From an uncultured Lachnospiraceae bacterium (GTDB lineage Bacteria; Bacillota; Clostridia; Lachnospirales; Lachnospiraceae), in NCBI GenBank assembly GCA_964653815.1, contig CAZZHJ010000002.1, positions 1 through 35,745 of the forward strand: DNA of 35,745 nucleotides, given 5' to 3'. Below are positions 5,499 through 31,049 of this stretch, in pieces (the stretch's first letter is position 1; each line of letters opens with the position of its first letter). A model generated the notes under the pieces. That model made no database searches and had not been told where the DNA came from. It saw nothing but the letters and a program-made list of their open reading frames with translations. The translations under genes and the position numbers were made by a program.

Positions 5499-5507
5499 GT
5501 GTAAGAT

Positions 5508-6361: not shown

Positions 6362-6394
6362 TTAGCAAAAGAAATTAAGTAAAGGATAAAAGCT

Positions 6395-6703: not shown

Positions 6704-6749
6704 AAAAATATACAATGTTCACAAAAAATCTTTTTTTATAAAAAAGGTA

Positions 6750-6778
6750 TTTACAGGTTAAAATCCCTGTACTATAAT
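6750..6778 (+). promoter_or_regulatory. SigA-type promoter of the tad operon
   Basis: TTTACA-N17-TATAAT. Confidence 0.75.
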
Positions 6779-6869
6779 CCATTTTACAAACAAATTCATA
6801 AGCAACTCAAAAGTCCGTTTCGGACAGGTTTTCCAATTTGTTTCAAATTAAATATAGGAGATAAGGAAT

Positions 6870-10289: not shown

Positions 10290-11599
10290 TGAGGAAAACA
10301 GAAAAAATAGAAAAGGCTGTAAGTCCCGTTATAAGAGAGCGCTTGAAACGACTGTATCCGGGAAAAGATGAAAATGAATTAGTCAAAGCTTTCTATATTA
10401 AAAAATTTAAATTAATGGGATTAACTCTGTGCGGAGGGATTGTTTTAGCTTTTTTACTTTTTATATCCAATGAGGTACAGGGAAAGATATCCGAAGAAGG
10501 AGAGATCATAAGAGATAATTACAGCGGCTTGACAATGGAAATTCCTGCAAGGGTATACAGCGAACAGTATGGGGAAATGGATGTAGAAATTGCGGTTGCT
10601 CCCCGAACTTATACAGAAGAAGAAAGAGAGGAAATTTTTCATGAGGCAGAGCAATGGCTGGAACAGGTAATGACAGGAAACAACGAAGGGCTTGATTGTG
10701 TCAGGGGAAATCTGGTATTTCCCGGTTTTTATAAAGATACAGATATAGCAATTGAGTATAGCAGCAGTAATTACGGACTGGTTAACGGAAGCGGAGAAGT
10801 AAAAAATCAGGAGCTGAAAAAAGAAGAAAAGGTTTTGATCAGGGCAGAATTTTCTTACGATAACGTTACAAAAACAAAAGACTATGAAGTAACGGTTTAT
10901 CCGCCTGTTTTAACACCTTCGGAAGAATTTAAAAAAACTCTTGAAGAGACGCTGATAACAGAAAATATTCTCCAAAAAGAGAATGAAGTATTTTTGCTTC
11001 CGAAGCAAATCGGAAAAGAGCAGGTAACTTTTCGGGAAAGAGGAAATAAAAATTTTATATACATATTCTTTTTGGGTATTCTGTGTGCTGCATGCCTGTA
11101 CAAAGGAATGGATAAAGATTTGGACAAGCTTTATGAAAAGCGTCAGCAAAAATTATTATTCCGCTATCCGGAATTCGTCAGTAAGCTGGCATTACTAACG
11201 GGTACGGGAATGAGCGTTACCGGAGCCATCAGGCGTATTTACGCAGATAAAAAAGATGAAAAGGGAGACCCGCTTTATGAGGAGTTGGGAATTTTTGTAA
11301 GAGGATTAGACAATGGGATGCTGGAAGAACATGCGTTGGAGGAATTTGGAAAGCGAAGCGGTCTAATACAGTATCGAAAATTCTGCACGCTGTTATCAAT
11401 CAATATGAAAAAAGGGTCTCTGAATTTAAAGACCATGCTGGAAAATGAGGCAGAGGAAGCCTTTACAAACCACCAGCAGCAGATTAAAAAAATGGGTGAA
11501 GAGGCAGGGACAAAACTGCTGCTGCCTATGATCATGATGTTGGGAGTTGTGGTTGTCATTATTATGATACCGGCTTTCATGACATATCAGATATCTTAA
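10289..11599 (+). CDS. tadC: TadC-like membrane platform protein with a large extracytoplasmic insert
   Basis: C-terminal YPEFVSKLALLTGTGMSV and GEEAGTKLLLPM T2SSF domain. Start at ATG 10289 overlaps the tadB stop. Confidence 0.82.
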   Translation: MRKTEKIEKAVSPVIRERLKRLYPGKDENELVKAFYIKKFKLMGLTLCGGIVLAFLLFISNEVQGKISEEGEIIRDNYSGLTMEIPARVYSEQYGEMDVEIAVAPRTYTEEEREEIFHEAEQWLEQVMTGNNEGLDCVRGNLVFPGFYKDTDIAIEYSSSNYGLVNGSGEVKNQELKKEEKVLIRAEFSYDNVTKTKDYEVTVYPPVLTPSEEFKKTLEETLITENILQKENEVFLLPKQIGKEQVTFRERGNKNFIYIFFLGILCAACLYKGMDKDLDKLYEKRQQKLLFRYPEFVSKLALLTGTGMSVTGAIRRIYADKKDEKGDPLYEELGIFVRGLDNGMLEEHALEEFGKRSGLIQYRKFCTLLSINMKKGSLNLKTMLENEAEEAFTNHQQQIKKMGEEAGTKLLLPMIMMLGVVVVIIMIPAFMTYQIS

Positions 11600-11615
11600 G
11601 AAAGGAGGAAAAGCC

Positions 11616-11783
11616 ATGAAAACATTCAAGCAGTTTTTGAGAGATGAAAAAGGCATAGGAACAGTGGAAATGATACTGATTCTGGTTGTACTGATTGCGC
11701 TGGTGCTGATTTTTAAAGAACAGATGACAGACCTGGTAAACAATATTTTTGACAAAATCAGCAAACAAAGTAACAAGGTATGA
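11616..11783 (+). CDS. flp: Flp1-family type IVb major pilin (55 aa; not in ORF track)
   Basis: AAGGAGG RBS, then MKTFKQFLRDEKG|IGTVEMILILVVLIALVLIFKEQMTDLVNNIFDKISKQSNKV: class III signal with Gly -1, Glu +5 and a hydrophobic helix. Confidence 0.93.
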   Translation: MKTFKQFLRDEKGIGTVEMILILVVLIALVLIFKEQMTDLVNNIFDKISKQSNKV

Positions 11784-11828
11784 GCGGTCAAACGGTAGAA
11801 AAAGAACGTAAAGGTTCGGGGAGGCATC

Positions 11829-13262
11829 ATGAAGAAAGTAAAACAGACAGAGGGTTCTATAACGATTTACCTTGCCCTTATATTTACAATCATATTGTCG
11901 TTTCTTTTATTTATCATAGAAGGAGCGAGGGAAAATGCAATACGGATGAAGGCGGAACTTGCCATGGATCTTTCCATGAGTTCAATATTTGCTGAATATA
12001 ACAGACAATTGCTTGAGCAGTATGATTTGTTTTTTATTGATGCCTCTTACGGACAGACAGACGCCTCCACAGAGCGTATTGGAGAGCATTTGAAAGGTTA
12101 TATGGATGATAATTTTCAAATAGGAGGTGATTGGGGTATCGTAAGAGATTTATTATCCATGAAGACGGAAGATGTAAATATAATCGATTATTCCCTGGCA
12201 AGCGATGAAGAAGGGGTTTTAATAAAGCGTCAGGCAGTTTCTTACATAAAAGACTTGTACGGAATTTCTTATTTGGAACAGCTGCAAAAGCAAATGGATA
12301 CCATTGAAAAAGAAAGTCTTTTTACCAGGGATGTGACAGGAGAAAGGCTTGCTAATCAAAGTGCCATAGATAATTTTGAAATTCCTCCAAAACAAGTAGG
12401 GGAAGATGAGTGGGAGGAAGTTGAATTAAATAATCCGGCAGACGGGGTTAATGCGGCAAGAGGCATTCTATCCCTAGTTATTGATGGAGAAAGTGAGTTG
12501 TCTGTGTCCGGTGTTAACTTATCAAATTACATTTCTGCAAGGAATTGCAATAAAGGCAGCGGTCTGGTGGGCAGAGAAAAAACCGACATAACCGATGAAC
12601 TGATTTTTAATGAGTATCTGATTCATAAATGCGGCAGCTATACGAATCCCAAAGAAACAGGTGCGCTGCAGTATCAATTGGAATACATTCTTATGGGAAA
12701 GAATAATGATGTGGAAAATTTAAAAGCGGTTGTCAACAGGCTGCTTTTGTTGAGGGAGACTGCAAATGTGGTTTATCTGTTTTCGGATAGCGGCAAAATG
12801 GCGGAAGCAGAAGCTCTGGCGCTGGCTGTCACTTCGGCAATTGCATTGCCGGAACTGGCAGAATTGGTAAAGATTTCGTTGATTTTTGCATGGGCATATG
12901 CGGAAAGTGTTTATGATGTACGCACTCTTTTAAAGGGAGGAAAAATCCCGCTAATAAAAAGCAGTGAAACATGGCATTACAGTATTTCCGGAATGTTGGA
13001 TTTTGCATCAGATACATCTGTGGATACATCAGATGGTATAGGGATTACTTATGAGGAATATCTACGTATTTTTCTGGCATCAGAAAATGTGCAAATAAAA
13101 ACAAGCAGGGCAATGGATATTATAGAAATGGATGTACGTAAATGTGAAGGAAACAAATATTTCAGGTTGGACACCTGCGTGGATTATCTGCAGGCGGAAG
13201 TATTGATATCCAGCAGTTATGGATATAATCACAGCATTACAAGGTCCTATTGCTATTATTAA
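11829..13262 (+). CDS. Large TadG-like pseudopilin (DUF5702-like)
   Basis: Class III-like signal TEG|SITIYLALIF (no Glu +5, as in TadG/GspK types); AEYNRQLLEQYDLF; YQLEYILMGK. Confidence 0.75.
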   Translation: MKKVKQTEGSITIYLALIFTIILSFLLFIIEGARENAIRMKAELAMDLSMSSIFAEYNRQLLEQYDLFFIDASYGQTDASTERIGEHLKGYMDDNFQIGGDWGIVRDLLSMKTEDVNIIDYSLASDEEGVLIKRQAVSYIKDLYGISYLEQLQKQMDTIEKESLFTRDVTGERLANQSAIDNFEIPPKQVGEDEWEEVELNNPADGVNAARGILSLVIDGESELSVSGVNLSNYISARNCNKGSGLVGREKTDITDELIFNEYLIHKCGSYTNPKETGALQYQLEYILMGKNNDVENLKAVVNRLLLLRETANVVYLFSDSGKMAEAEALALAVTSAIALPELAELVKISLIFAWAYAESVYDVRTLLKGGKIPLIKSSETWHYSISGMLDFASDTSVDTSDGIGITYEEYLRIFLASENVQIKTSRAMDIIEMDVRKCEGNKYFRLDTCVDYLQAEVLISSSYGYNHSITRSYCYY

Positions 13263-13286
13263 TAAAATGAAATGGGGTGACAAAAG

Positions 13287-14237
13287 ATGTCCTTTTTGAA
13301 AAGAAACAAATGGATTCATAGTGCATTATCTCTCCAGACACATTTCAAAAAACACACTTACAAAAATTATTTGATTTTCCCCAAGATCAAAAAACACAAA
13401 AGTAACTACTTTTCAAAAAGGATATCTTCTGTCATCCCATTTACCTCGGAGGGCAGTCTGTCTATAGAGGCTGCTCTCATTATTCCGATTTTTATGTTTG
13501 TTATAATGGCTGTTTTATCCTTTGTGGAAATACTCAGGCTTCAGATAAAAATAGACAATGCTATGCAGCAATGCGCAAAGGAATTGTCCGTATATGGATA
13601 TGCCTTTGATGAGTTTGGCAAGGATATGGTCGGGGATCTGTCTTTTCCTGTAGAAACTTTATTTTCGGAAACATATATAAAAAACCGGGTTATTGCAGAG
13701 GTGGGAGAGGAATACCTTAAAAATTCCCCCGCAGAAGGAACTTCCTTGCATTTTACCGGCAGCCGAATTATGAAAGATGATAGAATTGAAATTCGCTGTA
13801 GTTATTATGTTACACCTTTCTTTTCGTTATCACCCCAGACGGGATTTCTCACAGGGACGACTGCTGTGGCCAGGGCATTTACCGGATATGATAATATGGC
13901 CGCAGTATCTCTGGAGGACAAGGAAGAATATGTTTTTGTAACGCCAAATGGTACAGTCTATCACAGAAACCGGAGCTGTCATTATTTGGATTTATCCATA
14001 GAAAAGGCTTTTACTGACCAATTATCGGGGCTGAGAAATGAAGATGGAGGTATTTATAAAAAGTGTCCTATTTGTGGAGGAGAAAACAGCGGAACAGTTG
14101 TATTTATTACAAAATATGGGGACAGATATCATCAGGATATTTTGTGCAGCGGATTAAAAAGGACAATTGAAGCAATACCCATTTCGCAAACAGGAAGCAG
14201 GGCGCCGTGTACAAAATGTGGCGGAGAAAGGGAATAG
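13287..14237 (+). CDS. TadE-like minor pilin with two C-terminal His/Cys (Ada-like) metal-binding repeats
   Basis: EG|SLSIEAALIIP TadE signal; two YH-x4-C...C-x2-C repeats. Confidence 0.8.
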   Translation: MSFLKRNKWIHSALSLQTHFKKHTYKNYLIFPKIKKHKSNYFSKRISSVIPFTSEGSLSIEAALIIPIFMFVIMAVLSFVEILRLQIKIDNAMQQCAKELSVYGYAFDEFGKDMVGDLSFPVETLFSETYIKNRVIAEVGEEYLKNSPAEGTSLHFTGSRIMKDDRIEIRCSYYVTPFFSLSPQTGFLTGTTAVARAFTGYDNMAAVSLEDKEEYVFVTPNGTVYHRNRSCHYLDLSIEKAFTDQLSGLRNEDGGIYKKCPICGGENSGTVVFITKYGDRYHQDILCSGLKRTIEAIPISQTGSRAPCTKCGGERE

Positions 14238-14238
14238 A

Positions 14239-14670
14239 ATGATTTGGATACAGGGTCTTTTGGCAGTATTGCTGGCAGCTATGGCAATAGGGGATATAAA
14301 GTATAAAAAAATAAATATATGGGGCATAGGAGTGGGGAGCATTCTGGCAATGGCAGGGCTTATTATTTACGGACAGTCCCGGATTAGAAGTCTGGCGGCA
14401 GGAATTGGAATTGGTCTGACTGTATGTTTACTGCATTGGGTCACACAAAAAGGAATTGGTTTGGGAGATGGTATGTTAGCGGTACTAATCGGGAGTTGTA
14501 CAGGAGCAGAATTTACAATCATCTGCCTGTGTGCAGCATTTTTTCTAGCATCGTTTGCGGCATTGGCCTTGTGCTGCTTAAAAAGAATGGGGCGAAAAAG
14601 CAGGATTCCCTTTGTCCCCTTTTTGTTTCTTGGATATATGATAACTCTCGGCATGAAAGGGGGCGGATAA
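14239..14670 (+). CDS. Prepilin peptidase, A24 family #2
   Basis: AIGDIKYKKI and GIGLGDGML catalytic Asp motifs; C-terminal RIPFVPFL. Start reassigned to ATG 14239. Confidence 0.87.
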   Translation: MIWIQGLLAVLLAAMAIGDIKYKKINIWGIGVGSILAMAGLIIYGQSRIRSLAAGIGIGLTVCLLHWVTQKGIGLGDGMLAVLIGSCTGAEFTIICLCAAFFLASFAALALCCLKRMGRKSRIPFVPFLFLGYMITLGMKGGG

Positions 14671-14671
14671 T

Positions 14672-15094
14672 GTGATGGGTTGTTTAAAAGATCATAAAGG
14701 AAGTTTTGCCATAGAGGCAGCAATTATTATCCCATTTATTGTCTGTCTGCTTATGACAATTCTGTTTTTTGCATTTTTTCTATATGACAGGTGTTCCCTA
14801 GAAAGGGCGGCAGGATCAGCAGCATTAAGAGGAAGCCAGGAAATATGGGAATCTTCGGACGTACAATACCAGAAGGCAAATGAGGGCATTGATTTTGTTT
14901 TATCCCATAATCTGTTGGGAACTGATTGTGTGGACAAGCAAATTAAAATAAGCGGAAATGAAATAAAGGTTGTATTAAAAATGCAATATCATAAGTGGGA
15001 ATTTCAGGCAGAGTCCCAAAAGAAGGTTGTAAATCCTATAAACTTTATTAGAATTTGCAGAAAAGGGAAAGGAGTTATAGAAAAAATACAATGA
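14672..15094 (+). CDS. TadE-family minor pilin
   Basis: KG|SFAIEAAIIIP class III signal plus hydrophobic helix. Start is GTG 14672 or ATG 14675. Confidence 0.85.
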   Translation: MMGCLKDHKGSFAIEAAIIIPFIVCLLMTILFFAFFLYDRCSLERAAGSAALRGSQEIWESSDVQYQKANEGIDFVLSHNLLGTDCVDKQIKISGNEIKVVLKMQYHKWEFQAESQKKVVNPINFIRICRKGKGVIEKIQ

Positions 15095-16455
15095 ATATAG
15101 AGTATAAAAGAGAGAATCATAAGAGTTATCTTATCATCAAAGATTATGAATCGGAAGAACAGTTGAACACGGCAGAGAAAACACAAAATGATTATGATAT
15201 GAAAATGCTTTGTGATAATCATATTGACGGGCTTCTTACGGTATCTGTACATACTTTTAACGGGGAAAAGGAATTATATTATGATATCAGTGTCAGGCAG
15301 CCTTTGAGCATTTTGTATGAAAAAAAGGATATGGGAAAAGAAGAGTTAAAAAGGCTCTTTGAAGGAATAAAAAAGGCTCTGGAAAATATGGAAGAATATC
15401 TACTGGATATGGAGTGTCTGGTGTTGGAGCCGGAATATATATTTGTTCATTCTTCGGAAGAAAGTATAGATTTATTATATTGTGCTTACCAAAGAGAAAA
15501 TTTTGAACAAAAGGCATATGATTTTGCAGAATACATTTTAAACAGGATTAATCATGAAGATGAGCAGGCTGTCGTATATGCATATGGCTTTTATCGAAAT
15601 ATTAAGGAAGAAAGAGGAGATTTATTAAGAGCGTTGGAAAGACTGTTAGAGGAAAAAGAAAGTGATCAAGCTGAAAGTGGTGTCAAGGAGCAGCAGGAAG
15701 AATCCATGCACTTTGAGAGCATAAGAGAAAACCAGGATTTCTATTTTGATGAAGAGGATACTGTTGAAACGTCAGATAAGGAAAAAGAGGTCAAGAAAAA
15801 TAGTCAGATTATGAGAACGGTGTTTTTTATGATTTTGGGATTGGGAGGAATCGGAATCTTAATCTACAGCGCGTGGAAATATAGCCTAAACTGGAGTAAT
15901 CTGTTCTCAGAAAAGGAATCTGTTGTGGGAGCCGCTTTATTTATTGCATCGCTGGCAGGTTTGTGTATTTTCTATATTTTGGATATCATATGGCAGAATC
16001 AAGTAAAAAAAGAAGAAGTCATTGAAGAAAAAGAAAAAACAATAATTGAAGAAATCCCGGAGAGTGATTTTGATGAAGAAGTCCGGCGGGAACAGGAACT
16101 TGAAGTGGATTTGAAAGAAAATTCTTGTGAAACAGTGCTTTTACAGGAAAATTGTTATCATGAACAGCGCATACTAAGCGGACGGGTAAGAGGCAGGAAG
16201 AAACAGATTGATTTATCGGTTTTTCCTTTTATTATTGGAAAAAATAAAGATCAGGCGGATTATGTGTTAGATGATTCTTCAGTCAGCAGAATGCATGCCC
16301 GCTTTACTTTAAGAGATGATATTGTATATCTTACAGATTTAAACAGTACAAACGGGACCTGTAAAAACGGAATACGGTTAGAACCCAATGAATTGGTCAT
16401 GTTGGAGGCAGAGGATGAAATAAGTTTCGGAAGGCTTACATTCACCTATCATTGA
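15091..16455 (+). CDS. DUF6382-like domain / 2 TM helices / FHA-domain protein
   Basis: C-terminal FHA motifs FIIGK, VSRMHARF, LTDLNSTNGT; two central TM helices; start ATG 15091 overlaps the previous stop (ATGA). Confidence 0.85.
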   Translation: MNIEYKRENHKSYLIIKDYESEEQLNTAEKTQNDYDMKMLCDNHIDGLLTVSVHTFNGEKELYYDISVRQPLSILYEKKDMGKEELKRLFEGIKKALENMEEYLLDMECLVLEPEYIFVHSSEESIDLLYCAYQRENFEQKAYDFAEYILNRINHEDEQAVVYAYGFYRNIKEERGDLLRALERLLEEKESDQAESGVKEQQEESMHFESIRENQDFYFDEEDTVETSDKEKEVKKNSQIMRTVFFMILGLGGIGILIYSAWKYSLNWSNLFSEKESVVGAALFIASLAGLCIFYILDIIWQNQVKKEEVIEEKEKTIIEEIPESDFDEEVRREQELEVDLKENSCETVLLQENCYHEQRILSGRVRGRKKQIDLSVFPFIIGKNKDQADYVLDDSSVSRMHARFTLRDDIVYLTDLNSTNGTCKNGIRLEPNELVMLEAEDEISFGRLTFTYH

Positions 16456-19489: not shown

Positions 19490-19765
19490 GGCTATGACAG
19501 GAACAAGTAAGATAAAGGGAAACGCACAGAAAGCAGCCGGCTGATGAGAGGCGCGCGGGAAGCTCTATCTGAATACATCCTACAGCTGCACACCGAATAT
19601 TCCAAAAGGGAATGAGTAGGCTGTGACGGAAGATAACCGTTAGCGTATCGGCGTATCCCGCAAGGGTGTACGTAATGAGGCAGGAAGTGTGAGCTTTTTG
19701 CGAAGACAGGTGGTAACACGGGATTTTACCCGTCCTTTCAAATTATGAGAGGGCGGGTTTTTTAT
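19490..19765 (+). ncRNA. T-box riboswitch (Tyr specifier)
   Basis: AGTA and GCTGATGAGAG stem-I elements; specifier GAA-TAC at 19574-19576; T-box AGGTGGTAACACG at 19708-19720; terminator ACCCGTCCTTTC...GAGAGGGCGGGT followed by a T run; upstream of tyrS. Confidence 0.93.
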
Positions 19766-19887
19766 TGCACACCTTGTTCATAGCATAATTCTATGGGATA
19801 AATGTAAAGCAATAAAGAAAATGCCCCGTAATTTGGGGATGAGGAAAAGAAAACAAGATAAAAAAGAATAAGAAAAGGAGAAGAAAA

Positions 19888-21122: not shown

Positions 21123-21632
21123 ATGGCGCTTTCGCCGGTTATGAGAATGCAGCTTATAAACGGAGTGGAAAGAGTGCTTCATGCACCGGGCAATCCAACC
21201 CATGAATTAAAGGAAATGAGTCTGGTGTTGGATTACCATATGGATAAAGAAGATATAGGAGCGTTGGCGAAGGATGTGGCGGGGGCTTTAAAGGCCCACA
21301 GCCGCACCTTTGCCAATGTGCGTTGTAATCTGGTTCACTGGAAAAGGGATGAAATCATACAAAATGAGGTCTGCCCCCTGGCAATGGTACAATTAGGACG
21401 CTTTCTGGAAAATTATGAACAGATTGAAGAGACTAAAAAGGTTGAAATCCTCTGCGAATATTTGAAACGGTTTCATGCCAGGAGCAAACTGATACTGGTG
21501 CTTAGTGATTCCGCTTATAGCATTGAAAGCAGGGAGCAGCTAAAAGGCGCCCTTATTCCTTTTTTACAGTACAAGCTTTTATTTGCCGGTAATAATACTG
21601 TTAATAAGCTGAAGGAGACAGGGACACCATAG
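21123..21632 (+). CDS. Hypothetical protein, possible degenerate vWA-like alpha/beta fold
   Basis: ORF starts 11 nt after tyrS; alternating strand/helix pattern (MSLVLD, VRCNLVHW, KLILVLSD). Confidence 0.6.
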   Translation: MALSPVMRMQLINGVERVLHAPGNPTHELKEMSLVLDYHMDKEDIGALAKDVAGALKAHSRTFANVRCNLVHWKRDEIIQNEVCPLAMVQLGRFLENYEQIEETKKVEILCEYLKRFHARSKLILVLSDSAYSIESREQLKGALIPFLQYKLLFAGNNTVNKLKETGTP

Positions 21633-22317
21633 AAAGCAGAGTTTCCTGCTGGCTGTGACTGATCTGGATCTTTCCTTGACAGAGATTTATCAGGTTCCGG
21701 TTTTTCAAGCTTTCAATGATGCGGTTTATTGTCCGAAGGGAACAGCCTGCCTTTGCGGCTAATTCCTCCCGCTTTATGGGAAGACGGATTTGCCCGTTTA
21801 CGGCTTTATGGCGAAGGCATTCCGTAAGCAGAAGATGAAGACAGCGGGTTTCGTAATCCATGTATAGAAAATGGCGTTCGAAACTAACCTGTGTGGAAAG
21901 CTGTTTCATAAGCATTTGTGTGCGGAGAAAAAGAGCATGGGCATCCGAGCTGATCCATGTGCGGTAAATGCCTGCCGGCAGGGAGAGACAGATACAGTCC
22001 GTATATGCCATAACCGTTGAAATACTGTATTCCCCTCTGGAAAACATTTCGTAGTCGCCCACAATTTCAAAAGGAGCAGCCTCTAAAAGACAAAGAGGAA
22101 ATTCCGTTGTATTCTCATCTAAAATCTGCAGCTTTCCCTTTAACAGAAAATAAACGGTATGCGGGGGCGTATTGCAGTAAATCAATATTTTCCCTTTCAA
22201 AATCCGGTTTATATTCAGACAATCCTGCACCCGGGCAGGGCATTGTTTAAAAAAGTCTTCAAGCTTAGAAAATACTTCCTGTGAGGAACAATAAGTTAAG
22301 CAGTCTTTTATTTTCAT
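21601..22317 (-). CDS. Crp/Fnr family transcriptional regulator
   Basis: cNMP-binding beta-barrel (VYFLLKGKL, IVGDYEM, STVMAYTDC) and C-terminal HTH KREELAAKAGCSLRTINRII. Confidence 0.92.
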   Translation of the reverse strand: MKIKDCLTYCSSQEVFSKLEDFFKQCPARVQDCLNINRILKGKILIYCNTPPHTVYFLLKGKLQILDENTTEFPLCLLEAAPFEIVGDYEMFSRGEYSISTVMAYTDCICLSLPAGIYRTWISSDAHALFLRTQMLMKQLSTQVSFERHFLYMDYETRCLHLLLTECLRHKAVNGQIRLPIKREELAAKAGCSLRTINRIIESLKNRNLINLCQGKIQISHSQQETLLSMVSLSPSAY

Positions 22318-22332
22318 AAATTACCTCAAAAC

Positions 22333-22374
22333 ATGACAAATGGCATTTTATTTTTGTTTGACCTATCATATCCT
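22333..22374 (+). promoter_or_regulatory. Putative Crp/Fnr site and -10 element of deoD-deoB
   Basis: Near-palindrome ATGACA-AA-TGGCAT (22333-22346) and TATCCT (22369-22374), giving class II activator geometry. Confidence 0.55.
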
Positions 22375-22423
22375 AAAAATATGAAATTGACAACTGGTAA
22401 ACTGCAACAATAAGGAGGAGAAA

Positions 22424-23137
22424 ATGCCGACACCACATAATGAAGCAAAACGAGGGGAAATCGCAAAAACTGTATTAATGCCGGGAGACCCGCTGCGGGC
22501 CAAATTTATCGCAAATAACTGGCTGGAAAATTTTAAACTTGTAAACCAGGTAAGAAATATGTATGCCTACACGGGAACCTATAAGGGCAAAGAGCTTACA
22601 GTAATGGCAAGCGGAATGGGCATGCCCAGTATGGGGATTTATTCTTATGAACTGTATAAGGAATATGATGTGGATAAGATTATACGAATCGGAAGCGCAG
22701 GAAGCTATACACAGTCATTGAAACTGTTTGATATTGTTCTGGCGGAAAAAGTATGGAGTCAGTCCACATATGCAAAAACGCAAAGCGGGTTTGAGGAAAA
22801 TTTTCTGTTTCCCGAAAAGAGGTTAAATGATACAATTAAAACAATGAGTGACACATTGGAAATTCCCATTGTCCGAGCTTGTATTCATTCGACAGACGCC
22901 TTTTATCAGGAACCGGATGCAGATGATTATATAAAAATCAGGGATGCTTACGGCTGTCAGTGTGTAGAGATGGAAAGCTTTGCCTTATTCCATAATGCCA
23001 ATGTATTGGGAAAGCAGGCGGCATGTATTCTGACGGTATCGGATTCTTTTGTGACAGAAGAAAAAGCCACGGCAAAGGAACGGCAGCTATCCTTTGAAAA
23101 AATGATTATGCTTGCGTTGGAATCAGCGGTTAAGTAA
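22424..23137 (+). CDS. deoD: Purine nucleoside phosphorylase DeoD-type
   Basis: [41 protein letters not shown]. Confidence 0.96.
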
Positions 23138-23153
23138 AAAGGAGGAATTGCAT

Positions 23154-24332
23154 ATGCGGTATAAAAGAATATTTCTGATTGTATTGGATTCCCTTGGAAT
23201 CGGCGCCATGCCCGATGCGGCGGAATACGGGGATGCGGGGACAAACACCTTTGTCCATATCTGGGAACGGATGCAGGGACTTAATATTCCCAATTTACGG
23301 AAACTTGGAATGGGAAATCTGTGCCGGGTTACGGAGGATGAAGAAACCCTGGGTTACCGGATGCGCTTAAAGGAGGCCAGCACCGGCAAGGATACCATGA
23401 CCGGTCATTGGGAAATGATGGGTATTTTAACGACAAAACCCTTCCGTACCTTTACAGATACCGGTTTCCCCGATGAACTGATCAAAGAACTGGAAGAAAA
23501 ATGCGGAAGAAAAATCATAGGAAATAAAGCTGCCAGCGGAACGGAAATACTGGAAGAGCTTGCGGAGCGGGAAATACAGAACGGAGAATTAATTGTGTAT
23601 ACGTCTGCGGATTCCGTATTGCAGATTTGCGGGAATGAGGAGACTATGGGAGTGGAAACACTTTACCGCTACTGTGAAATCGCAAGGGAGCTGACCATGA
23701 AGGAAGAGTGGAGAGTGGGAAGAGTCATTGCACGCCCTTATACAGGACAGAAAAAAGGAGAATTCCGCCGTACTGCCAACAGAAGGGACTATGCCCTTGC
23801 GCCGGAGAAGAAAACGGTCTTGGATTTCCTCAAAGAAAGCGGGATTCCCGTAGTGGGAATCGGCAAGATAGAGGATATTTTTGCAGGCCATGGAATTACG
23901 GAAAGCGAGCATTCTAAAAGCAGCGTTCACGGAATGGAACAGACCATCCGGAAAGCAAAGGAATTAAAAGAAGGCCTTGTGTTCACAAATCTGGTGGATT
24001 TTGATGCCCTGTGGGGACACAGAAGAGATCCCATAGGCTATGGTAAGGAAATTGAGGCATTTGACGTAAAGCTGGGAGAGCTTCTTTCGGTTTTGGGGGA
24101 GGATGACCTTGTAATGCTGACCGCCGATCATGGGAATGACCCCACCCATACAGGAACAGACCATACGAGGGAAACAGTTCCCCTTTTAATGTATGCAAAA
24201 TCCATGTCCGGGCAGGCGGAGCTGGAAGAAGCGGACACTTTTGGGGTTATCGGGGCAACGGTTGCAAAGAATTTTGCCGTGGATTTGCCGGATAGCCTGA
24301 TTGGAGAGTCCATATTGGAAAAATTGGTGTAA
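23154..24332 (+). CDS. deoB: Phosphopentomutase
   Basis: [55 protein letters not shown]. Start ATG 23154 after AAGGAGG. Confidence 0.97.
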
Positions 24333-24350
24333 ATAAAACAGAAAAAATAT

Positions 24351-24400
24351 AAAATATATGCCTATAGTCAATATATAGATTGATTATAGGCATATTTTTA
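24351..24400. terminator. Bidirectional terminator between convergent deoB and gntR
   Basis: 17-bp stem ATATGCCTATAGTCAAT / ATTGATTATAGGCATAT flanked by A and T runs. Confidence 0.75.
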
Positions 24401-25141
24401 TTTTTGTCCGCCGCCCTGATTGCTGATCACAAAATTCAGATGATAATACTCAGGAATAAAATAGAATTTATTTCTTGCAAAAGGACGCTCCATTTTATCC
24501 AGATGTAAAGCCTCAATCAAAATCAGGGGAGTGTCTAAAGGAATCTTTAAAAATTCAATTTCTATGGCATTGGCATGAATGAGTTTGATTTTCATGTCCA
24601 TTTTTTTAGAATAATGAAACAGTGTTTCTAAAATCAATTCTTTAATAGAGTCCGTATCTGACGTGTTCAACTTTAATTCATCAAAAAACATAGCCGGAAT
24701 CTGGGTAAACGAATACCCTAAAACGGTTTTCTCCGATTGAAAAACACAATTGCATGCCAAAACCAGATCGCTGGCCCCTAAAGATAAACGGTCTCTTGCA
24801 ATATCCGTAGGCGCTCCGTAATTGTAGGTTATGGCAGTTTCCGTAATAGGCAGCTTATTCATGGAAAGAAGGGGATGGATGATTTGTTCCTTTGAGGAAT
24901 GTTTGACACTGGGAGCTACCAGCGTGCCCTTTCCCTGGGATTTGATAATCATGCCGTCCTCGTGGAGAATAGCAAGAGCCTGTCTTAAGGTATTCCGGCT
25001 GACGCCGTATTTTTGTGAAAGAGCAGTTTCACCGGGGAGCGTTTCGTTTGGAGGATAAACGCCGTCCGTAATGTCTTTATAAAGAGAATTGTATACCCCG
25101 ATATAAGCAGGTATGTTTTCCGGGTGTAATTTGGTATTCAA
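24398..25141 (-). CDS. GntR family regulator (HutC/UTRA type)
   Basis: LPGETALSQKYGVSRNTLRQAL...QGKGTLV wHTH plus UTRA-like C-domain. Likely TTG start at 25141 with AAGGAG 8 nt upstream. Confidence 0.9.
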   Translation of the reverse strand: MNTKLHPENIPAYIGVYNSLYKDITDGVYPPNETLPGETALSQKYGVSRNTLRQALAILHEDGMIIKSQGKGTLVAPSVKHSSKEQIIHPLLSMNKLPITETAITYNYGAPTDIARDRLSLGASDLVLACNCVFQSEKTVLGYSFTQIPAMFFDELKLNTSDTDSIKELILETLFHYSKKMDMKIKLIHANAIEIEFLKIPLDTPLILIEALHLDKMERPFARNKFYFIPEYYHLNFVISNQGGGQK

Positions 25142-25157
25142 TAAAACATCTCCTTTA

Positions 25158-25331
25158 AACTTGATGAACAAGTTGATCATATCATAAATACGAGTATCTG
25201 CATCCATCCTTTGATGTGGCGGACATATGGGAATACTTTCCACGTTAAAACTCATTTTATCATAATAATCAGATGTTGACAAGGTGGATGGACTATGCTA
25301 GACTTTAATCATGTTGAACATGTTGAACAAG
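25158..25331. promoter_or_regulatory. Divergent control region: SigA promoter plus repeated GntR-type operators
   Basis: TTGACA(25276)-N17-TAGACT(25299) with extended TG; AACTTGATGAACAAGTT at 25158-25174; CATGTTGAACATGTTGAACAAG at 25310-25331. Confidence 0.7.
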
Positions 25332-25374
25332 TAGAGCGGAAAATAAATGGAAAGGAGGAGTAAAGAGAAGGCGG

Positions 25375-26169
25375 ATGATTCGGATATGTAGTGACAAAGA
25401 TGAAGAAGTACTGCTCCGGTTTTTAAAAAGAGATTCTATGCTGCACACATATATCATTGCCGATATGGAACGGTACAGATTTGATAAGCCATATCAAAAA
25501 ATCTATATGATGGAGAATAAGAATTTCTGCGAAGGTGTTTTTCTGGAATACTACAATAATTTGATATTTTCGAAGGTTGAAGGAAATATAGAACCGGAAG
25601 AGATCATCAAATATATTTTACCGGAAATTACAAATATAATGGGCGAGTTGAAGGTTGTGAAAAAAGTTGCAAATTATTTGGGGTTATCAGGCAGCATGAC
25701 GACTAACAATTTATATGCACAAAAGAGAGCCGCAAAACAATATAGCGGTGATTTGCCGGATGTGCGGATGGCCGGATTGCGTGATGTGGACGCTATTTAT
25801 GATTTTTTAATGAGCTTTCCCGAATTTACGGAGATATACGCCCAAAAGGAAATGATTGAAAACCGGATAGAAAAAGGAGAAGGCATTCACGTTTTGCTGG
25901 AAAAAGACGGAAAGATAGTGGCGCACGGAAATAGTGCCGCATCTACAGATGAAACCTGTTTTCTGGGAGGAATCTGTGTTTTGCCCGGCGAACGTAAAAA
26001 GGGGTATGCAATGGCTGTTGTACAGATGCTGTGTAACGAAATACACAAGCAGAACAGAATCCCCTGTGTGTTTGCTCCGGAAGAAAAAGAATACACCATT
26101 TTCCAAAGGCTGGGTTTTGAAAAATGCGGAAAATGGGGAACAATTCAAATGAAAGGAGATAACAGATGA
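25375..26169 (+). CDS. Two-domain GNAT family acetyltransferase-like protein
   Basis: LGGICVLPGERKKGYA acetyl-CoA loop; RLGF C-terminal motif. Confidence 0.82.
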   Translation: MIRICSDKDEEVLLRFLKRDSMLHTYIIADMERYRFDKPYQKIYMMENKNFCEGVFLEYYNNLIFSKVEGNIEPEEIIKYILPEITNIMGELKVVKKVANYLGLSGSMTTNNLYAQKRAAKQYSGDLPDVRMAGLRDVDAIYDFLMSFPEFTEIYAQKEMIENRIEKGEGIHVLLEKDGKIVAHGNSAASTDETCFLGGICVLPGERKKGYAMAVVQMLCNEIHKQNRIPCVFAPEEKEYTIFQRLGFEKCGKWGTIQMKGDNR

Positions 26170-27581
26170 ATAAAAACAAACTAAAAGTCAGCGAAATTTT
26201 GGGATACGCTGTGGGAGGCATCGGAGATGCGACCTCTTACAATTTTGTAATTGCATTATTTTCGTTTTTTATGACTACAATTGCAGGTATCAGTCCGGCT
26301 GTGGCAGGTATGATCATATCGGCAGGCGTTGTCTGGGATGCTGTTACCGATCCTGTTGTGGGATATTTAATAGATAATACGAAGGGAAGATACGGAAAAA
26401 GAAGACCCTGGATGCTGGGTTCGGCAATTCCTTTGGGGGCTGCCATGATTCTGATGTTTTTAAAGGTGGATCTTCCCCAGACACAAAAGATTGCTTATTA
26501 CCTCATTATGGTATTTGTGTTCTGGCTGTCCTATACGGCATTTAACATTGCATATTATTCCTTTGGATCTGTCATTACCGAAGACGACAGCGAAAGAGTA
26601 AAGGTGCAGGCATACAGGAATGTATTAAGCTATGTGGGGCTCTTCTGCGCCAGCTCGGTGCCTACCTTTGGAGTGGCAAAGCTGGTGGAAAAAGGATTTA
26701 CAGACGGAGATGCATGGTCCATTATGGCGGTGGTGGCAGCGGTTATTTCCGTTGTATCTATCATTCTGATGTGGAAATTTACAAGAGGAAAGGAATCGGC
26801 GGAAGAAGTAAGCAATAACCGGGAAAAAATGAATGTGGGCGGATTTTTTAAAGACATTGTGTGCCTGATGAAAATGAAGCCTTATCTGCTCATTATTGTG
26901 TGTGCGCTTCTTGCAAATATTTATATGACGCTTTTCAATTCCAGTCTGCTGTATTATGTCTGCTACAACATGGGATTGAGCGAGGCTCAGGCTTCCATGA
27001 TGTTTACTACCAGTAATATTGTAGCCATCCTGTTCAGTCCTGTTATCGCAAAGCTGGTAGAAAGATTTAATAAAACTAATGTTTTTGTAGGGACAATGGT
27101 CTTCAGCGGTCTGGTAATGATCATCGCAAAGTTTACAGGCATTCCGTCTATAGCTGTAGGATGTGTGTATGTAGCTCTTACCGGTCTTGGAACCTGTGCA
27201 TACTGGCTGTGTATTTTCAACTTCCTGTTTGATGTGGTGGATTATAACGAGTTTAAGACGGGAACCCGCCGGGACGGAATCATTATGTCATACTATTCTT
27301 TCCTGTTAAAACTGGGCGGAGCTGCGGCAGCGGCAGTTCAGGGCATCCTTTTGGAAAAGAGCGGATTTAATGTGGAGCTGGCTGTACAAAACGAATCTGC
27401 ATTAGGTATGATTGAAACCATGTTTACTATTCTGCCGGGTATTATCATGATAGGCTCCGGACTTGTAATGCTTTTAACACCCTTGAAGGATAAAGAAATG
27501 GATATTCTTAGAATTGAATTGGACAAAAAACGTGCCGGCGAAGAATATTCCGCAGAAAAATTTGCTTCTATTATGAAATGA
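26166..27581 (+). CDS. MFS transporter, glycoside-pentoside-hexuronide (GPH):cation symporter family
   Basis: WDAVTDPVVGYLIDNTKGRYGKRRPW and DVVDYNEFKTGTRRDG motifs; about 12 TM helices. Confidence 0.93.
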   Translation: MNKNKLKVSEILGYAVGGIGDATSYNFVIALFSFFMTTIAGISPAVAGMIISAGVVWDAVTDPVVGYLIDNTKGRYGKRRPWMLGSAIPLGAAMILMFLKVDLPQTQKIAYYLIMVFVFWLSYTAFNIAYYSFGSVITEDDSERVKVQAYRNVLSYVGLFCASSVPTFGVAKLVEKGFTDGDAWSIMAVVAAVISVVSIILMWKFTRGKESAEEVSNNREKMNVGGFFKDIVCLMKMKPYLLIIVCALLANIYMTLFNSSLLYYVCYNMGLSEAQASMMFTTSNIVAILFSPVIAKLVERFNKTNVFVGTMVFSGLVMIIAKFTGIPSIAVGCVYVALTGLGTCAYWLCIFNFLFDVVDYNEFKTGTRRDGIIMSYYSFLLKLGGAAAAAVQGILLEKSGFNVELAVQNESALGMIETMFTILPGIIMIGSGLVMLLTPLKDKEMDILRIELDKKRAGEEYSAEKFASIMK

Positions 27582-27640
27582 TAAATAAAACGTTAAACGA
27601 GACTAACAATAAATAATATTTTAAAACAGGAGGAATAAAA

Positions 27641-28492
27641 ATGAACCAAAACAAAGCAGCAGTGGTTATGCAGACAGATTTCGGAAAAGGAATTGCTGTA
27701 TGTACCATGCAGGGAGTATGCACTATGGTTGATAAGGAATTAAGGGTATTTGATTGTTCCCACGATATTAATAATTTTGATACGTATCAGGCATCCATTT
27801 CTCTGGATTACATTGTGGATTTCTGGCCAACAGGTACCGTATTCATTTCTGTTGTAGACCCGGGTGTAGGGACAAGCCGCCGTGCCAGCGTGGCAAAACT
27901 GAAAAACGGAAGCTATGTAGTAACGCCTGATAACGGAACATTGACACATTTAAAGGAACGAATCGGTATTGAGGAAATTCGCATTATAGACGAAAAAGTC
28001 AACCGTTTAAAAAATACGGAGAAATGCAATATTTTCCATGGAAGAGATTTATTTGCATATTGCGGGGCCAGGCTGGCATCGGGAATTATTACATTTGAAG
28101 AAGTAGGGCCTGCTTATAATGTAAATGAAATTGTAACCCATGAACTTCTTCCCTATAAGGTAGAGGAATCTGTAATAACAGGTATGATTGCCAATGCGGA
28201 TTATCATTTCGGCTTAATCTGTTCCAATATACCGGCGGAAGTTTTTGAAACGGAAAATATCCGGCACGGGGATTATGTCCATGTAACCATCCAAAAGAAA
28301 GGGCAGGAAGCTCCTGCATTTGAAGGGGAAGTTCCTTTTTGCCAGTCATTCGGCTTTGTGAAAGAAGGAGAACCCTTGCTGATGGTAAGCGAATCGTTAC
28401 ACATCCAGGCGGCGTTAAACTGTGCCAACATGGCGGAAAAATATGATTTACACGCAGGAAGCGACTGGACAATGAAAATAGAAAAATCTTAA
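27641..28492 (+). CDS. SAM hydroxide adenosyltransferase (DUF62, SAM hydrolase / halogenase superfamily) paralog 1
   Basis: QTDFG, VVDPGVGTSRR, TPDNG, FHGRDLF. Confidence 0.92.
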   Translation: MNQNKAAVVMQTDFGKGIAVCTMQGVCTMVDKELRVFDCSHDINNFDTYQASISLDYIVDFWPTGTVFISVVDPGVGTSRRASVAKLKNGSYVVTPDNGTLTHLKERIGIEEIRIIDEKVNRLKNTEKCNIFHGRDLFAYCGARLASGIITFEEVGPAYNVNEIVTHELLPYKVEESVITGMIANADYHFGLICSNIPAEVFETENIRHGDYVHVTIQKKGQEAPAFEGEVPFCQSFGFVKEGEPLLMVSESLHIQAALNCANMAEKYDLHAGSDWTMKIEKS

Positions 28493-28503
28493 GGAGGATG
28501 AAT

Positions 28504-29367
28504 ATGAAACCTGTTATTGTAATGCAGTCAGATTTTGGAACAGATTCCGGTTTGGTATCATGTATGCACGGAATTTGCAAAATTGTGGACCCTCAGTTAC
28601 AGATATTTGATATCACACATGTTTTACCCGCTTTTGATATTGAAGCTGCTTCTTTCTGCCTTCAGTATACGGTTCCATGCTGGCCCGAGGGAACGGTATT
28701 TGTTTCTGTAGTAGATCCCGGAGTCGGAACTGACAGGCGTGCCAGTGTGGCAAAATTGAAAAATGGAAGCTATGTGGTAACACCGGACAACGGAGCCCTT
28801 ACTTATTTGCATCAGATGATTGGCGTAGAAGAAATAAGGGAAATAGACGAGACCGTAAACCGTTATCCGAAAACTATGGAAATCAGCGTTTTCCACGGAC
28901 GGGATTTGTTTTCTTACTGTGCGGCAAGGCTTGCGTCGGGTCTGATTACTTTTGAAGAAGTGGGGCCTGAATATCCCTTAGAAGAAATCGTATTGCACAA
29001 AACTTATGCATCCTGCAAAAAAGGTAATGGCGTGGAAGGAAGCATCTTATGGTTTGACCCCTTCGGCAGCGCTGGTACATCTATTAAAAATGCTGACCTT
29101 GCACAGTGCGGCTTTAAAATCGGCGATAAAGCAATAGTGAAAATATATGATGAATCCACACTGTTGTTTGAAGGAATCATTCCATATGAGAAGTCCTTTG
29201 GATACGTTAAAAAGGGAAATCCGGTAATTTTTAACGGACTTACCTCTTTTGTGACCATTGCCGTAAATGAAGGCAGTTTTGCAGACCGGTATCAATTAAA
29301 TCAGGAAAAAGTATATAGAGTAGAAATTATAGAAAGGGGTAAAGATGTGGACACAGAATATTCCTAA
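28504..29367 (+). CDS. SAM hydroxide adenosyltransferase (DUF62) paralog 2
   Basis: QSDFG, VVDPGVGTDRR, TPDNG, FHGRDLF. Start 28504 preferred because ATG 28498 abuts the AAGGAGG RBS. Confidence 0.92.
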   Translation: MKPVIVMQSDFGTDSGLVSCMHGICKIVDPQLQIFDITHVLPAFDIEAASFCLQYTVPCWPEGTVFVSVVDPGVGTDRRASVAKLKNGSYVVTPDNGALTYLHQMIGVEEIREIDETVNRYPKTMEISVFHGRDLFSYCAARLASGLITFEEVGPEYPLEEIVLHKTYASCKKGNGVEGSILWFDPFGSAGTSIKNADLAQCGFKIGDKAIVKIYDESTLLFEGIIPYEKSFGYVKKGNPVIFNGLTSFVTIAVNEGSFADRYQLNQEKVYRVEIIERGKDVDTEYS

Positions 29368-30340
29368 AGTAGAACTTCATTGTCATCTGGACGGTTCCAT
29401 TCCCCTGTCTGTTATTAAAGGACTGTGTCAAAAAGAAAAAATTGCCATACCCGGAAGTGAAAAGGCATTCCGCAAACTGGTGGAAGCCGATGAAAATTGC
29501 AAAAGCTTATGTGAATACTTAGAGGCTTTTAAACTTCCTTTGTCCTGTCTGGCAACAGAAGAGTCCTTTTATGAGGCGGCTTATGGAGAGGCTTTGGAAG
29601 CATCAAAAGAAGGCGTGCTTTATCAGGAACTCCGTTTTTCTCCCCTTTTATCAGAAAAGCCGGGACTTTCTTCAGAAAGTATCATAGAAGCTGCCATAGA
29701 AGGACTTGTCAGGGCAAAAGCGGAATGTGGAATACATGTGGAACTGCTTTTGTGCGGAATGCGTCATTTCACGGAGGCACAGAATTTCCGGATTCTGGAA
29801 CTAACAAAAAAATATCTGTCCTGGGGCGTATGTGGTGCAGACCTTGCAGGAGATGAGGCGGCATTTGCAAACGAAAAATTTCTCTCTTATTTTAAACGCG
29901 CATCCGCAATGGATATTCCTTTTACGGTGCATGCAGGAGAGTGCAGAAGAGCAAAGAATATTGAAATTGCAGTTTTGGAGGGGGCCCGCAGAATAGGTCA
30001 TGGAATTGCAATGAGTGGAAATGAACAGCTTTTGGAAATACTTTGTAAAAAGAATATCGGGGTAGAATTGTGCCCCAACAGCAATGTGCAGACAAAAGCA
30101 GTTTCTTCATGGCAGGATTATCCTTTCAGAGAATTTCTGGAACGGGGAATCAAAATATCTATTAACACGGATAACCGCACTGTTACCAATACAACCATTA
30201 CAAATGAGTTAAATGTGTTAAAAGAGAAATTTGCTCTGACAATAGAGGAGGCGGCAGCTATTATGAAACAGGCCATGGAAACGTCTTTTGCAGAAGAAAG
30301 CCTGAAAAAGGACATTATCAAAAAACTATCGTCTGATTGA
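29345..30340 (+). CDS. add: Adenosine deaminase family protein
   Basis: PKVELHCHLDGS, TVHAGE, RIGHG, ELCPNSN and INTDN amidohydrolase motifs. Confidence 0.93.
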   Translation: MWTQNIPKVELHCHLDGSIPLSVIKGLCQKEKIAIPGSEKAFRKLVEADENCKSLCEYLEAFKLPLSCLATEESFYEAAYGEALEASKEGVLYQELRFSPLLSEKPGLSSESIIEAAIEGLVRAKAECGIHVELLLCGMRHFTEAQNFRILELTKKYLSWGVCGADLAGDEAAFANEKFLSYFKRASAMDIPFTVHAGECRRAKNIEIAVLEGARRIGHGIAMSGNEQLLEILCKKNIGVELCPNSNVQTKAVSSWQDYPFREFLERGIKISINTDNRTVTNTTITNELNVLKEKFALTIEEAAAIMKQAMETSFAEESLKKDIIKKLSSD

Positions 30341-30400
30341 TCTTATGAATAAAATAGAATAGTTTTGTAATAATGCAGAAATAGTAAACTGATTTAGAAT

Positions 30401-30447
30401 GGCGCTCCGGGCAGCATAAAGAATGGCTGTCAGGAGCGTTTTACTTT
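30401..30447 (+). terminator. Intrinsic terminator closing the GNAT-MFS-DUF62-DUF62-add operon
   Basis: GGCGCTCC-G-GGCAGC ... GCTGTC-A-GGAGCGTT stem followed by TTACTTT. Confidence 0.65.
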
Positions 30448-30614: not shown

Positions 30615-31049
30615 ATGATTAGAGAAATCAATGAAAATGATTACGATGGGTTGATGAAATTGTATATGCAGCTTCATGATAATCCCTTTCCGGTCAAAGA
30701 TGAAAAAATGCTGAACTTATGGAACCGGATTTTAAATGATAAAGACCATCATATTATTGTGGCGGAAAAAGACGGTAAAATCGTATCTTCCTGTGTCTGC
30801 GTTATTATACCTAATTTAACCCACGGACAGCAGCCATATGCATTTGTGGAAAATGTAATTACCGATGAAAACTACCGTAAGCAGGGACTGGCAACAGAAT
30901 GTCTGAATTATGCCAGAGAACTGGCGGTAAAAGAAAATTGTTATAAGTTAATGCTGCTTACCGGTTCCAAATCGGAAAGCACCCTTAAATTTTATGAACA
31001 GGCAGGCTATAACCGAAAAGATAAAACAGCATTTATCCAATGGATTTAA
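30615..31049 (+). CDS. GNAT family N-acetyltransferase
   Basis: IIPNLTHGQQPYAFVENVIT, YRKQGLA, CYKLML, FYEQAGY. Confidence 0.92.
   Translation: MIREINENDYDGLMKLYMQLHDNPFPVKDEKMLNLWNRILNDKDHHIIVAEKDGKIVSSCVCVIIPNLTHGQQPYAFVENVITDENYRKQGLATECLNYARELAVKENCYKLMLLTGSKSESTLKFYEQAGYNRKDKTAFIQWI

Follow-up and report, generated by a model that had tools for sequence, protein, structure and literature searches.

A GntR-type regulon, predicted from genomic context, that joins two SAM hydrolase-family (DUF62) paralogues to a dedicated GPH symporter in gut Lachnospiraceae

Known systems and the locus

Enzymes of the DUF62 family that carry an Asp-Arg-His triad are described in the literature as hydrolysing (R,S)-S-adenosylmethionine (SAM) to adenosine and methionine. 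The archaeal reaction is R-specific and DUF62 knock-outs raise the intracellular share of (R,S)-SAM (10.1101/2025.08.29.672840), StDUF62 prefers the R-epimer and is inhibited by salt, with its physiological role doubted (PMC12120602), and the water-activating triad is specific to DUF62, the halogenases being without it (PMC10491745). Described members are discussed there as intracellular repair enzymes, which is the role that PMC12120602 doubts. What, then, are such enzymes doing beside a transporter? The locus considered here lies in a stretch of 35,745 nucleotides (nt), called the window, from an uncultured Lachnospiraceae bacterium (GCA_964653815.1, contig CAZZHJ010000002.1, forward strand, positions 1-35,745; the assembly has 2.25 Mb and is 68% complete). 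It holds an operon of a GNAT gene, a GPH-type symporter gene, two DUF62 genes (DUF62a and DUF62b) and an adenosine deaminase gene, divergent from a GntR-type regulator gene and adjoining a deoD-deoB unit.

The DUF62 proteins of the window are like PH0463, TM0894 (2ZBU), MJ1651, StDUF62, SaciSAMH and HvSAMH in Pfam domains, fold, triad, ribose-binding Asp and pocket aromatics. Unlike the described hydrolases, they are two paralogues from separate clades within one transporter-linked operon, and they have Leu and Ser at the position equivalent to Asn215, and Glu and Leu at that equivalent to Ser269, of the fluorinase FlA. With FlA and SalL they share fold and pocket scaffold, whereas the water-activating triad sets them apart. 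A SAM halogenase identity was ruled out, as the triad is present and the TIGR04507 scores, 60-68 bits, fall far short of the cut-off at 400. A second point of comparison is the predicted 'methionine precursor' family of energy-coupling factor (ECF) importers, with MtsU, which is 3.A.1.29 in TCDB (PMC3654945). The ECF and DUF62 operons found in this work resemble the locus in that an importer stands beside DUF62, and a subset of them shares the GntR, the GNAT and a palindrome. A prediction paper of 2009 on ECF systems reportedly foresaw an importer for SAM or a methionine precursor. Methionine-precursor ECF systems are under SAM or methionine riboswitch control; the window instead has a GPH symporter, no riboswitch and added adenosine-catabolic genes, with no ECF gene in the region and no Rfam match in the window. 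Add, DeoD and DeoB are ordinary enzymes of the deo catabolic type and the regulator is a HutC-family GntR like YvoA and NagR, the unusual feature being the position of the nucleoside genes after a pair of SAM hydrolases with an importer of their own. The locus is an assembly of known families into an undescribed regulon. The preliminary description of this DNA knew of no account of such a module; a literature search that took in few subscription journals and no supplements likewise returned no transporter-linked DUF62 operon, and no published description of the palindrome with its GNAT partner was found.

How might such a locus work? The reading that we favour, moderately probable from its genomic context, is that of a substrate-inducible operon that imports and splits an S-adenosyl sulfonium compound and recycles the adenosine. 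The GPH symporter would import the compound, be it SAM, the damaged R-epimer of SAM or a near analogue. DUF62a and DUF62b would hydrolyse it to adenosine and a sulfide, after which a purine base and ribose-5-phosphate would be formed from adenosine by Add, DeoD and DeoB. GntR would repress the module at the palindrome, and the GNAT would make or modify the GntR signal, or acetylate an amine product. In the genome of the window a separately regulated deoD-deoB would act on the product from outside the GntR operon. The preliminary description had put forward a scavenging chain of this kind. The tie between importer and DUF62 speaks for it, as do two metagenome loci (L147 and L172) with the chain linked in one place; it has to be corrected in that add and the deo genes are accessory and that deoD-deoB of the window stands apart. 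The features of the region are the following.

21601..22317, minus strand: Crp/Fnr-type regulator (Pfam cNMP_binding and HTH_Crp_2), divergent from deoD
22424..23137, plus strand: deoD, DeoD-type purine nucleoside phosphorylase (TIGR00107, 256.9 bits, cut-off 232.25)
23154..24332, plus strand: deoB, phosphopentomutase (TIGR01696, 504.7 bits, cut-off 341.2)
24356..24395 (within 24345-24410), either strand: bidirectional terminator-like hairpin where deoB and gntR converge (z -7.3 on one strand and -6.0 on the other)
24398..25141, minus strand: gntR, predicted repressor of the HutC type (GntR and UTRA domains)
25159..25173, no strand: predicted operator before gntR (18.8 bits, the third-best match of the genome)
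25276..25304, plus strand: sigma-70-type promoter, TTGACA-17-TAGACT with a TG extension, read from the sequence
25309..25332, no strand: two overlapping predicted GntR operators directly after the -10 box (21.7 and 24.8 bits)
25375..26169, plus strand: acetyltransferase of tandem-GNAT fold (domain match), which accompanies GntR
26166..27581, plus strand: GPH:cation symporter of a dedicated subfamily, predicted importer (TIGR00792, 257.8 bits, cut-off 231.35)
27641..28492, plus strand: DUF62a, SAM hydrolase family (PF01887 and PF20257; triad D73/R80/H133)
28498..29367, plus strand: DUF62b, SAM hydrolase family, separate clade (PF01887 and PF20257; triad D73/R80/H133)
29345..30340, plus strand: add, adenosine deaminase (TIGR01430, 282.3 bits, cut-off 216.55), overlapping DUF62b
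30401..30447 (hairpin 30401-30440), plus strand: terminator-like hairpin with a U-rich tail after add (z -3.5)

Much of the preliminary description survives at this level. Its nine genes are all real, lie where it had placed them and pass the tests for their families (open reading frames (ORFs), Pfam, NCBIfam); ORFs and hairpins agree with its terminator-bounded GNAT-GPH-DUF62-DUF62-add unit divergent from GntR, and the deoD-deoB unit next to the operon does diverge from a Crp/Fnr regulator. The start of gntR has to be moved from 25282: translation most likely begins with the TTG at 25141, which an AAGGAGA site precedes, in agreement with the lengths of orthologues. Within the operon, GNAT and GPH overlap by 4 nt, 59 nt separate GPH from DUF62a and 5 nt DUF62a from DUF62b, and DUF62b and add overlap. 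All genes are under purifying selection, with ratios of nonsynonymous to synonymous change (dN/dS) of 0.03-0.16 against the congener G003 and, for add, 0.20 against G007. By tblastn there is no second copy of deoD, deoB, add or DUF62 in the assembly, which is 68% complete.

A conserved core and its distribution

The part of the locus that recurs is a core in which GntR diverges from GNAT-GPH-DUF62a-DUF62b; it occurs in Lachnospiraceae, in Oscillospiraceae and in one spirochaete. The preliminary description had proposed a synteny search for a DUF62 pair with GPH, add and deoD/deoB, and had named a lack of conserved co-occurrence as what would speak against it. The order of the core, with the DUF62 pair beside GPH, recurs across lineages; add and deoD/deoB are accessory. 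Among the matches listed in a scan of GTDB for DUF62 loci outside the genus of the window (at least 75 loci, a sample), Flavonifractor An92 and a metagenome-assembled genome (MAG) of Spirochaetaceae have the same order, and Pseudoflavonifractor keeps it up to DUF62a, where its short contig ends. Scanning metagenomes with a profile of GPH yielded 46 loci, in 33 of which the GPH match is close and in 13 distant. Among the 33, the core order is kept wherever contigs extend far enough, the second DUF62 of L173 being only partial; in the 13 distant-GPH control loci no DUF62 was found. An indirect measure points the same way: among close GPH clusters, 23 of 74 have a longest contig of the same length as that of a DUF62a cluster, and among distant GPH clusters 0 of 11. 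The module is also present in cultured species, Blautia producta and Mediterraneibacter gnavus; GPH and DUF62a have consecutive accessions in B. coccoides/producta, B. marasmi, B. hominis and F. orotica, and L153 encodes a GPH with the same sequence as a protein of M. gnavus.

Within the genus of the window 4 of 18 genomes carry the module. These carriers are mutually closest kin (tyrS 98-100% identical) and therefore count as one event. The site, between tyrS-orf169 and padR/fumA, holds other genes or none in all eight non-carrier congeners examined. Any DUF62 gene at all occurs in 28 of 400 genomes of the family, and the GPH subfamily is rare, since it is found in 0 of 400 other genomes of the order. 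A plasmid collection returned eight records, all distant (24-44%). DUF62a and add of Enterocloster clostridioformis are labelled plasmid-borne (P0353, P0569; XBX10744.1, XBX10742.1), and from this label it follows that the module can be mobile. A disrupted module was seen in a Schaedlerella MAG (L039:10049-11451), with a DUF62a that lacks its 5' third, no GNAT or GPH, and repeats at the junctions. In one lineage the module is followed by genes for a TadA/cytidine-deaminase-like protein and for a purine/cytosine permease (L150:5263-7065, L192:11427-13230 and L148:14626-16429).

The palindrome, the GntR regulon and the exchange of importers

In GPH loci a palindrome, ACWTGTTSAACAWGT, stands upstream of GNAT directly after the -10 box, and TTGAC at equal spacing is likewise found in the upstream regions of orthologous loci. 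A position weight matrix of this operator was trained on 14 loci in which the site is conserved, all outside the genus of the window. Where does it match in the genome itself? Its three best hits lie in the window, at 25318, 25309 and 25159 (18.8-24.8 bits); the next best reaches 14.4, and shuffled genomes give 2-11 hits of at least 14 bits. Between crp and deoD the palindrome gave no matrix hit. Across 72 non-training GTDB loci, among the matches listed, a palindrome of at least 15 bits is present at 11 of 12 loci with an orthologous GntR against 2 of 60 without, counts in which kin are not independent, the site of L046 is far from the module and the one miss, L042, is cut at a contig end. 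The GNAT follows the regulator in the same way, at 12 of 15 GntR loci against 2 of 60 others (again among the matches listed). GntR and UTRA domains together with a promoter palindrome that co-occurs with the regulator are as in a HutC-type regulon, and among solved structures YvoA matches the GntR profile best. From these data we infer that GntR binds the palindrome and represses; the operator before gntR predicts autoregulation.

The same palindrome is found, too, at the head of operons that combine an ECF importer and DUF62 with this GntR. A dedicated ECF importer stands beside one to six DUF62 genes at 51 of 75 GTDB loci (among the matches listed), and in Diplocloster an a-type DUF62 lies behind an ECF importer. 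Because palindrome and GntR head both GPH-type and ECF-type operons, GPH likely substitutes for the ECF importer within one regulon, so that the two importers would be interchangeable. A function of GPH in import is predicted from its family, in which MelB and MFSD2A are the solved relatives, and from this exchange. In two ECF-DUF62 operons of Lachnospiraceae the GNAT is fused to the N-terminus of GntR/UTRA (L033:5868-7421 and L043:5877-7421; 514-517 amino acids); the fusions are 59% identical, their linkers differ, and a perfect palindrome lies upstream of each. The structure of the GNAT gave no acceptor, only generic tandem-GNAT matches with template-modelling (TM) scores of 0.5-0.65 over the query at 8-17% identity. 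A Sapep-type M20 dipeptidase gene is present in eight ECF-DUF62 operons (L023, L028, L034, L035, L052, L057, L068 and L073), all without this GntR or GNAT. Tandem DUF62 paralogues, some of them triad-less or of half length, occur in the ECF operons L021, L022, L024, L029, L030 and L046.

The DUF62 paralogues and their pocket

DUF62a and DUF62b are 47% identical. In a quick maximum-likelihood tree (212 rows, dereplicated to 171 and then thinned to 86) the 14 b-type proteins linked to GPH group in one clade with support of 99, and the 13 a-type proteins fall in another (98) together with four ECF-linked rows; neither type lies inside the canonical DUF62 clade. A recent tandem duplication is ruled out by these separate clades. 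The Asp-Arg-His triad named in the preliminary description is there in both proteins as D73-R80-H133, residues that align to the triad of PH0463; across 27 GPH-linked DUF62 proteins Asp and Arg are invariant and His is kept in 26. The model of DUF62a has a mean predicted local distance difference test (pLDDT) of 92 and a TM score of 0.80 to 2ZBU. Its pocket has the ribose Asp D13 and the aromatics F46, F190 and F237, which correspond to those that stack on adenine. These four residues are kept in 12-13 of 13 a-type rows and, with Tyr allowed, in 14 of 14 b-type rows; for FlA the pocket roles of Asp16 and Trp50 are described in PMC1282579.

Is the substrate then SAM? In FlA, Asn215 contacts the adenine amino group and Ser269/Arg270 the methionine carboxyl (PMC1282579), and the group of residues with Asn215 and Ser269 is called critical (PMC3999930). 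By sequence alignment PH0463 and TM0894 retain Asn and Ser at the two positions; DUF62a has L192 and E251 there and DUF62b S191 and L248. The a-type rows have Leu in 13 of 13 at the 215 position and Glu in 12 of 12 at the 269 position, and all 14 b-type rows have Ser, Ile or Thr at the former and Leu, Val, Met or Ile at the latter. Canonical rows keep Ser269 in 52 of 52, and in 40 of 52 the Asn215 position is without Asn, with Ser there. A large ECF-linked DUF62 clade also has Glu at the Ser269 position. Asp21 and Trp217 of FlA were dropped as markers of specificity, as PH0463 and TM0894 are also without them. As triad, ribose Asp and aromatics are kept and the 215 and 269 positions are changed, the paralogues likely work like SAM hydrolases on a compound whose leaving group may differ from methionine; the differences at the Asn215 and Ser269 positions are also why the substrate may be an analogue of SAM. 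The 'SAM or SAM-like' substrate of the preliminary description is thus upheld as to the hallmarks of the hydrolase, whereas SAM itself is no more than a candidate, with two pocket positions differing.

The nucleoside genes

How firmly do add, deoD and deoB belong to the module? Add, DeoD and DeoB all exceed their family cut-offs (TIGR01430, TIGR00107 and TIGR01696). Add has the motifs HCHLDG, HAGE, GHG and NTDN, and the second Asp of its DD motif is Asn in the window, L147 and L172. In L147, GNAT-GPH-DUF62a-DUF62b-add-deoB-deoD form one tight operon behind three palindromes, with add 15 nt after DUF62b and the ends of deoB and deoD overlapping or abutting; proteins of B. coccoides/producta match its GPH at 100% identity and its DUF62a and Add at 99% each. 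L172 has GPH-DUF62a-DUF62b-add-deoD-(small ORF)-deoB, with deoD frameshifted in that assembly. By accession, add is two away from DUF62a in E. hominis, L. pacaense, the E. clostridioformis plasmid and an Acetivibrio MAG, and three away from GPH in B. producta. Identities of add parallel those of GPH (window-L147, 59 against 65%; window-L172, 40 against 47%; L147-L172, 39 against 51%), which suggests that add is an old part of the module that has often been lost. The deoB and deoD of L147 are 46-48% identical to those of the window and those of L172 66-72% (deoD 72%, deoB 66%), which points to at least two separate recruitments.

In twelve lineages 1.5 kb or more can be seen past DUF62b (this genus, L147, L172, L148/150/192, L153-160, L161, L162/193, L164, L170, L173, L016 and L020), and in three of them add, deoD or deoB adjoins the module. 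Even in the genus, add was not found in two of the four carrier species (G003 and G012), and a near-identical terminator directly follows DUF62b in L144, a G012-like locus without add. The Flavonifractor genome has no match to PF00962. No linked add, deoD or nucleoside hydrolase gene was found in the 51 ECF loci (among the matches listed), L019 having a deoB about 6 kb away on the opposite strand, and the 13 distant-GPH control loci gave a single punA hit as nucleoside gene. A nucleoside hydrolase gene in L162 was not counted as an operon member, as it is 245 nt off with its own TTGACA and the similar L193 is without it. The nucleoside genes are optional add-ons to the module, and deoD-deoB of the window is a separate unit beside the Crp-type gene, without the GntR palindrome.

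Among the 18 genomes of the genus the DeoD type is found only in the four carriers, where the Crp/Fnr-type gene accompanies deoD-deoB and, to judge from the layout, likely controls it; the purine nucleoside phosphorylase common across the genus, to go by the one copy that was classified, is of the PunA type. Enzymes of the DeoD type take adenosine itself as a substrate, and add would therefore be dispensable. The deoB of the window is of a foreign type, 46-49% identical to the only deoB matched in each of 13 congeners without the module. The four carrier species (window, G003, G007 and G012) show the foreign-type deoB only, and it is possible that it displaced the native gene in them. In Dorea-type MAGs, which form a longer-stemmed branch of GPH, add is the next accession (P0152/P0236, P0483; MCI9237077.1, MCI9237076.1). 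Such a locus was sought in the Schaedlerella genus, where 2 of 29 genomes have ordinary module copies without add, and in 201 relatives, where one has only a distant, unlinked add.

Alternative explanations

Several observations weigh against import and cleavage of an S-adenosyl sulfonium compound. To our knowledge, the characterised GPH carriers move glycosides or lysolipids and not sulfonium zwitterions. Both paralogues depart from PH0463, TM0894 and the 52 canonical rows at Ser269 and have no Asn at 215, and the (R)-SAM hydrolase equivalogs NF053629 and NF058624 score 94-136 bits against cut-offs of 350 and 470. An active hydrolase of (S,S)-SAM would form a futile cycle with MetK. The four carriers of the genus are closest kin and a single event, 9 of the 12 lineages with visible flanks have no add, deoD or deoB next to the module, and the Dorea-type GPH branch has add next to it by accession, its DUF62 context not being visible there. 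Is GPH perhaps a carrier for a neutral adenine nucleoside that feeds Add and DeoD, with the DUF62 pair serving separately, for example in clearing intracellular (R,S)-SAM? The consecutive accessions of GPH and add in Dorea sp. and Lachnospiraceae 50-23 would fit this, as would the nesting of that longer-stemmed branch inside the DUF62-linked GPHs and the rise of intracellular (R,S)-SAM in archaeal DUF62 knock-outs (10.1101/2025.08.29.672840). In the DNA loci seen, however, the DUF62 genes are the constant neighbours of GPH and add is not, and the same palindrome and GntR head ECF-DUF62 operons without add (among the matches listed). For housekeeping repair, an importer and a pair of old paralogues would not be required, and DUF62 is present in just those 28 of 400 family genomes, so that we find this explanation improbable.

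A possible, though clearly less probable, alternative to the favoured reading is that the module scavenges sulfur or methionine and that add, deoD and deoB merely dispose of adenosine, with no route to carbon or energy. Most relatives do use a micronutrient-type ECF importer without nucleoside genes (among the matches listed), the nucleoside genes are missing beside most GPH lineages, and TCDB has its methionine-precursor ECF family with MtsU (PMC3654945). Control is of another kind, however: no S-box or T-box was called by Rfam at gathering score in the window or seven related loci, and a GntR/UTRA-type regulator is present instead. In five of five genomes tested there is metK and a MetH-type gene, four of them having only the two DUF62 genes; SAM auxotrophy as the reason for the module is ruled out by this metK. 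With no riboswitch found and metK and a MetH-type gene present, induction by the substrate fits better than control by methionine starvation. Moreover, one of the changed pocket residues is the counterpart of the contact to the methionine carboxylate. It is also conceivable that crp-deoD-deoB has nothing to do with the GntR module and that the two came to lie side by side as separate cargo of an insertion hotspot, which would suit the variable or empty tyrS-orf169/padR-fumA site of the eight congeners and a deoD-deoB unit with its own divergent regulator, no palindrome and a hairpin between deoB and gntR. We give this little weight, since L172 has deoD and deoB of the window's type directly behind DUF62b-add, L147 carries a different deoB and deoD within the one operon run, and within the genus carriers of the module are the only genomes in which the DeoD-type enzyme or this deoB was found. 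A bolder extension of the favoured reading, which we regard as speculative and on present evidence rather unlikely, is that gut anaerobes have diversified DUF62 for adenosyl-sulfoniums other than SAM; the invariant Glu of DUF62a would then mark a substrate without the carboxylate, such as decarboxylated SAM, and the GNAT would acetylate the released amine or turn it into the GntR signal. On that view no GPH carrier before this one would have had an adenosyl-sulfonium as its cargo, and Blautia and M. gnavus would possess a new catabolic route in the operon.

Neighbouring genes

The region around the locus has further features. An ORF of 169 codons (21123-21632) without a Pfam or NCBIfam match follows tyrS in several congeners and overlaps the end of the Crp-type gene. 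Past the terminator, at 30615-31049, lies a second, single-domain GNAT, present in G003 and not at the corresponding site of G012, which appears to be a separate unit. The tyrS leader (19490-19770) has a terminator and the sequence GGTGGTAACACG, which we take to be a T-box-like motif; Rfam at gathering score made no call. Further upstream (1409-16455), DUF6240, flagellin and fliS genes precede a pilus cluster of the Tad/Flp type, which includes DUF5702 and a DUF6382-FHA protein.

Implications

The physiological role of DUF62 is openly questioned (PMC12120602), and the locus links DUF62 to an importer, a repressor, a predicted operator and adenosine genes. Its role becomes testable in cultured gut species, namely B. 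producta/coccoides, M. gnavus and Enterocloster. If the favoured reading is true, gut bacteria would have a further way of using up SAM-type compounds, with inosine as a product. It would also give a class of cargo to this GPH subfamily and to the orphan ECF importers of the same regulon, and it would add SAM-cleaving enzymes with altered pockets to the DUF62 family.

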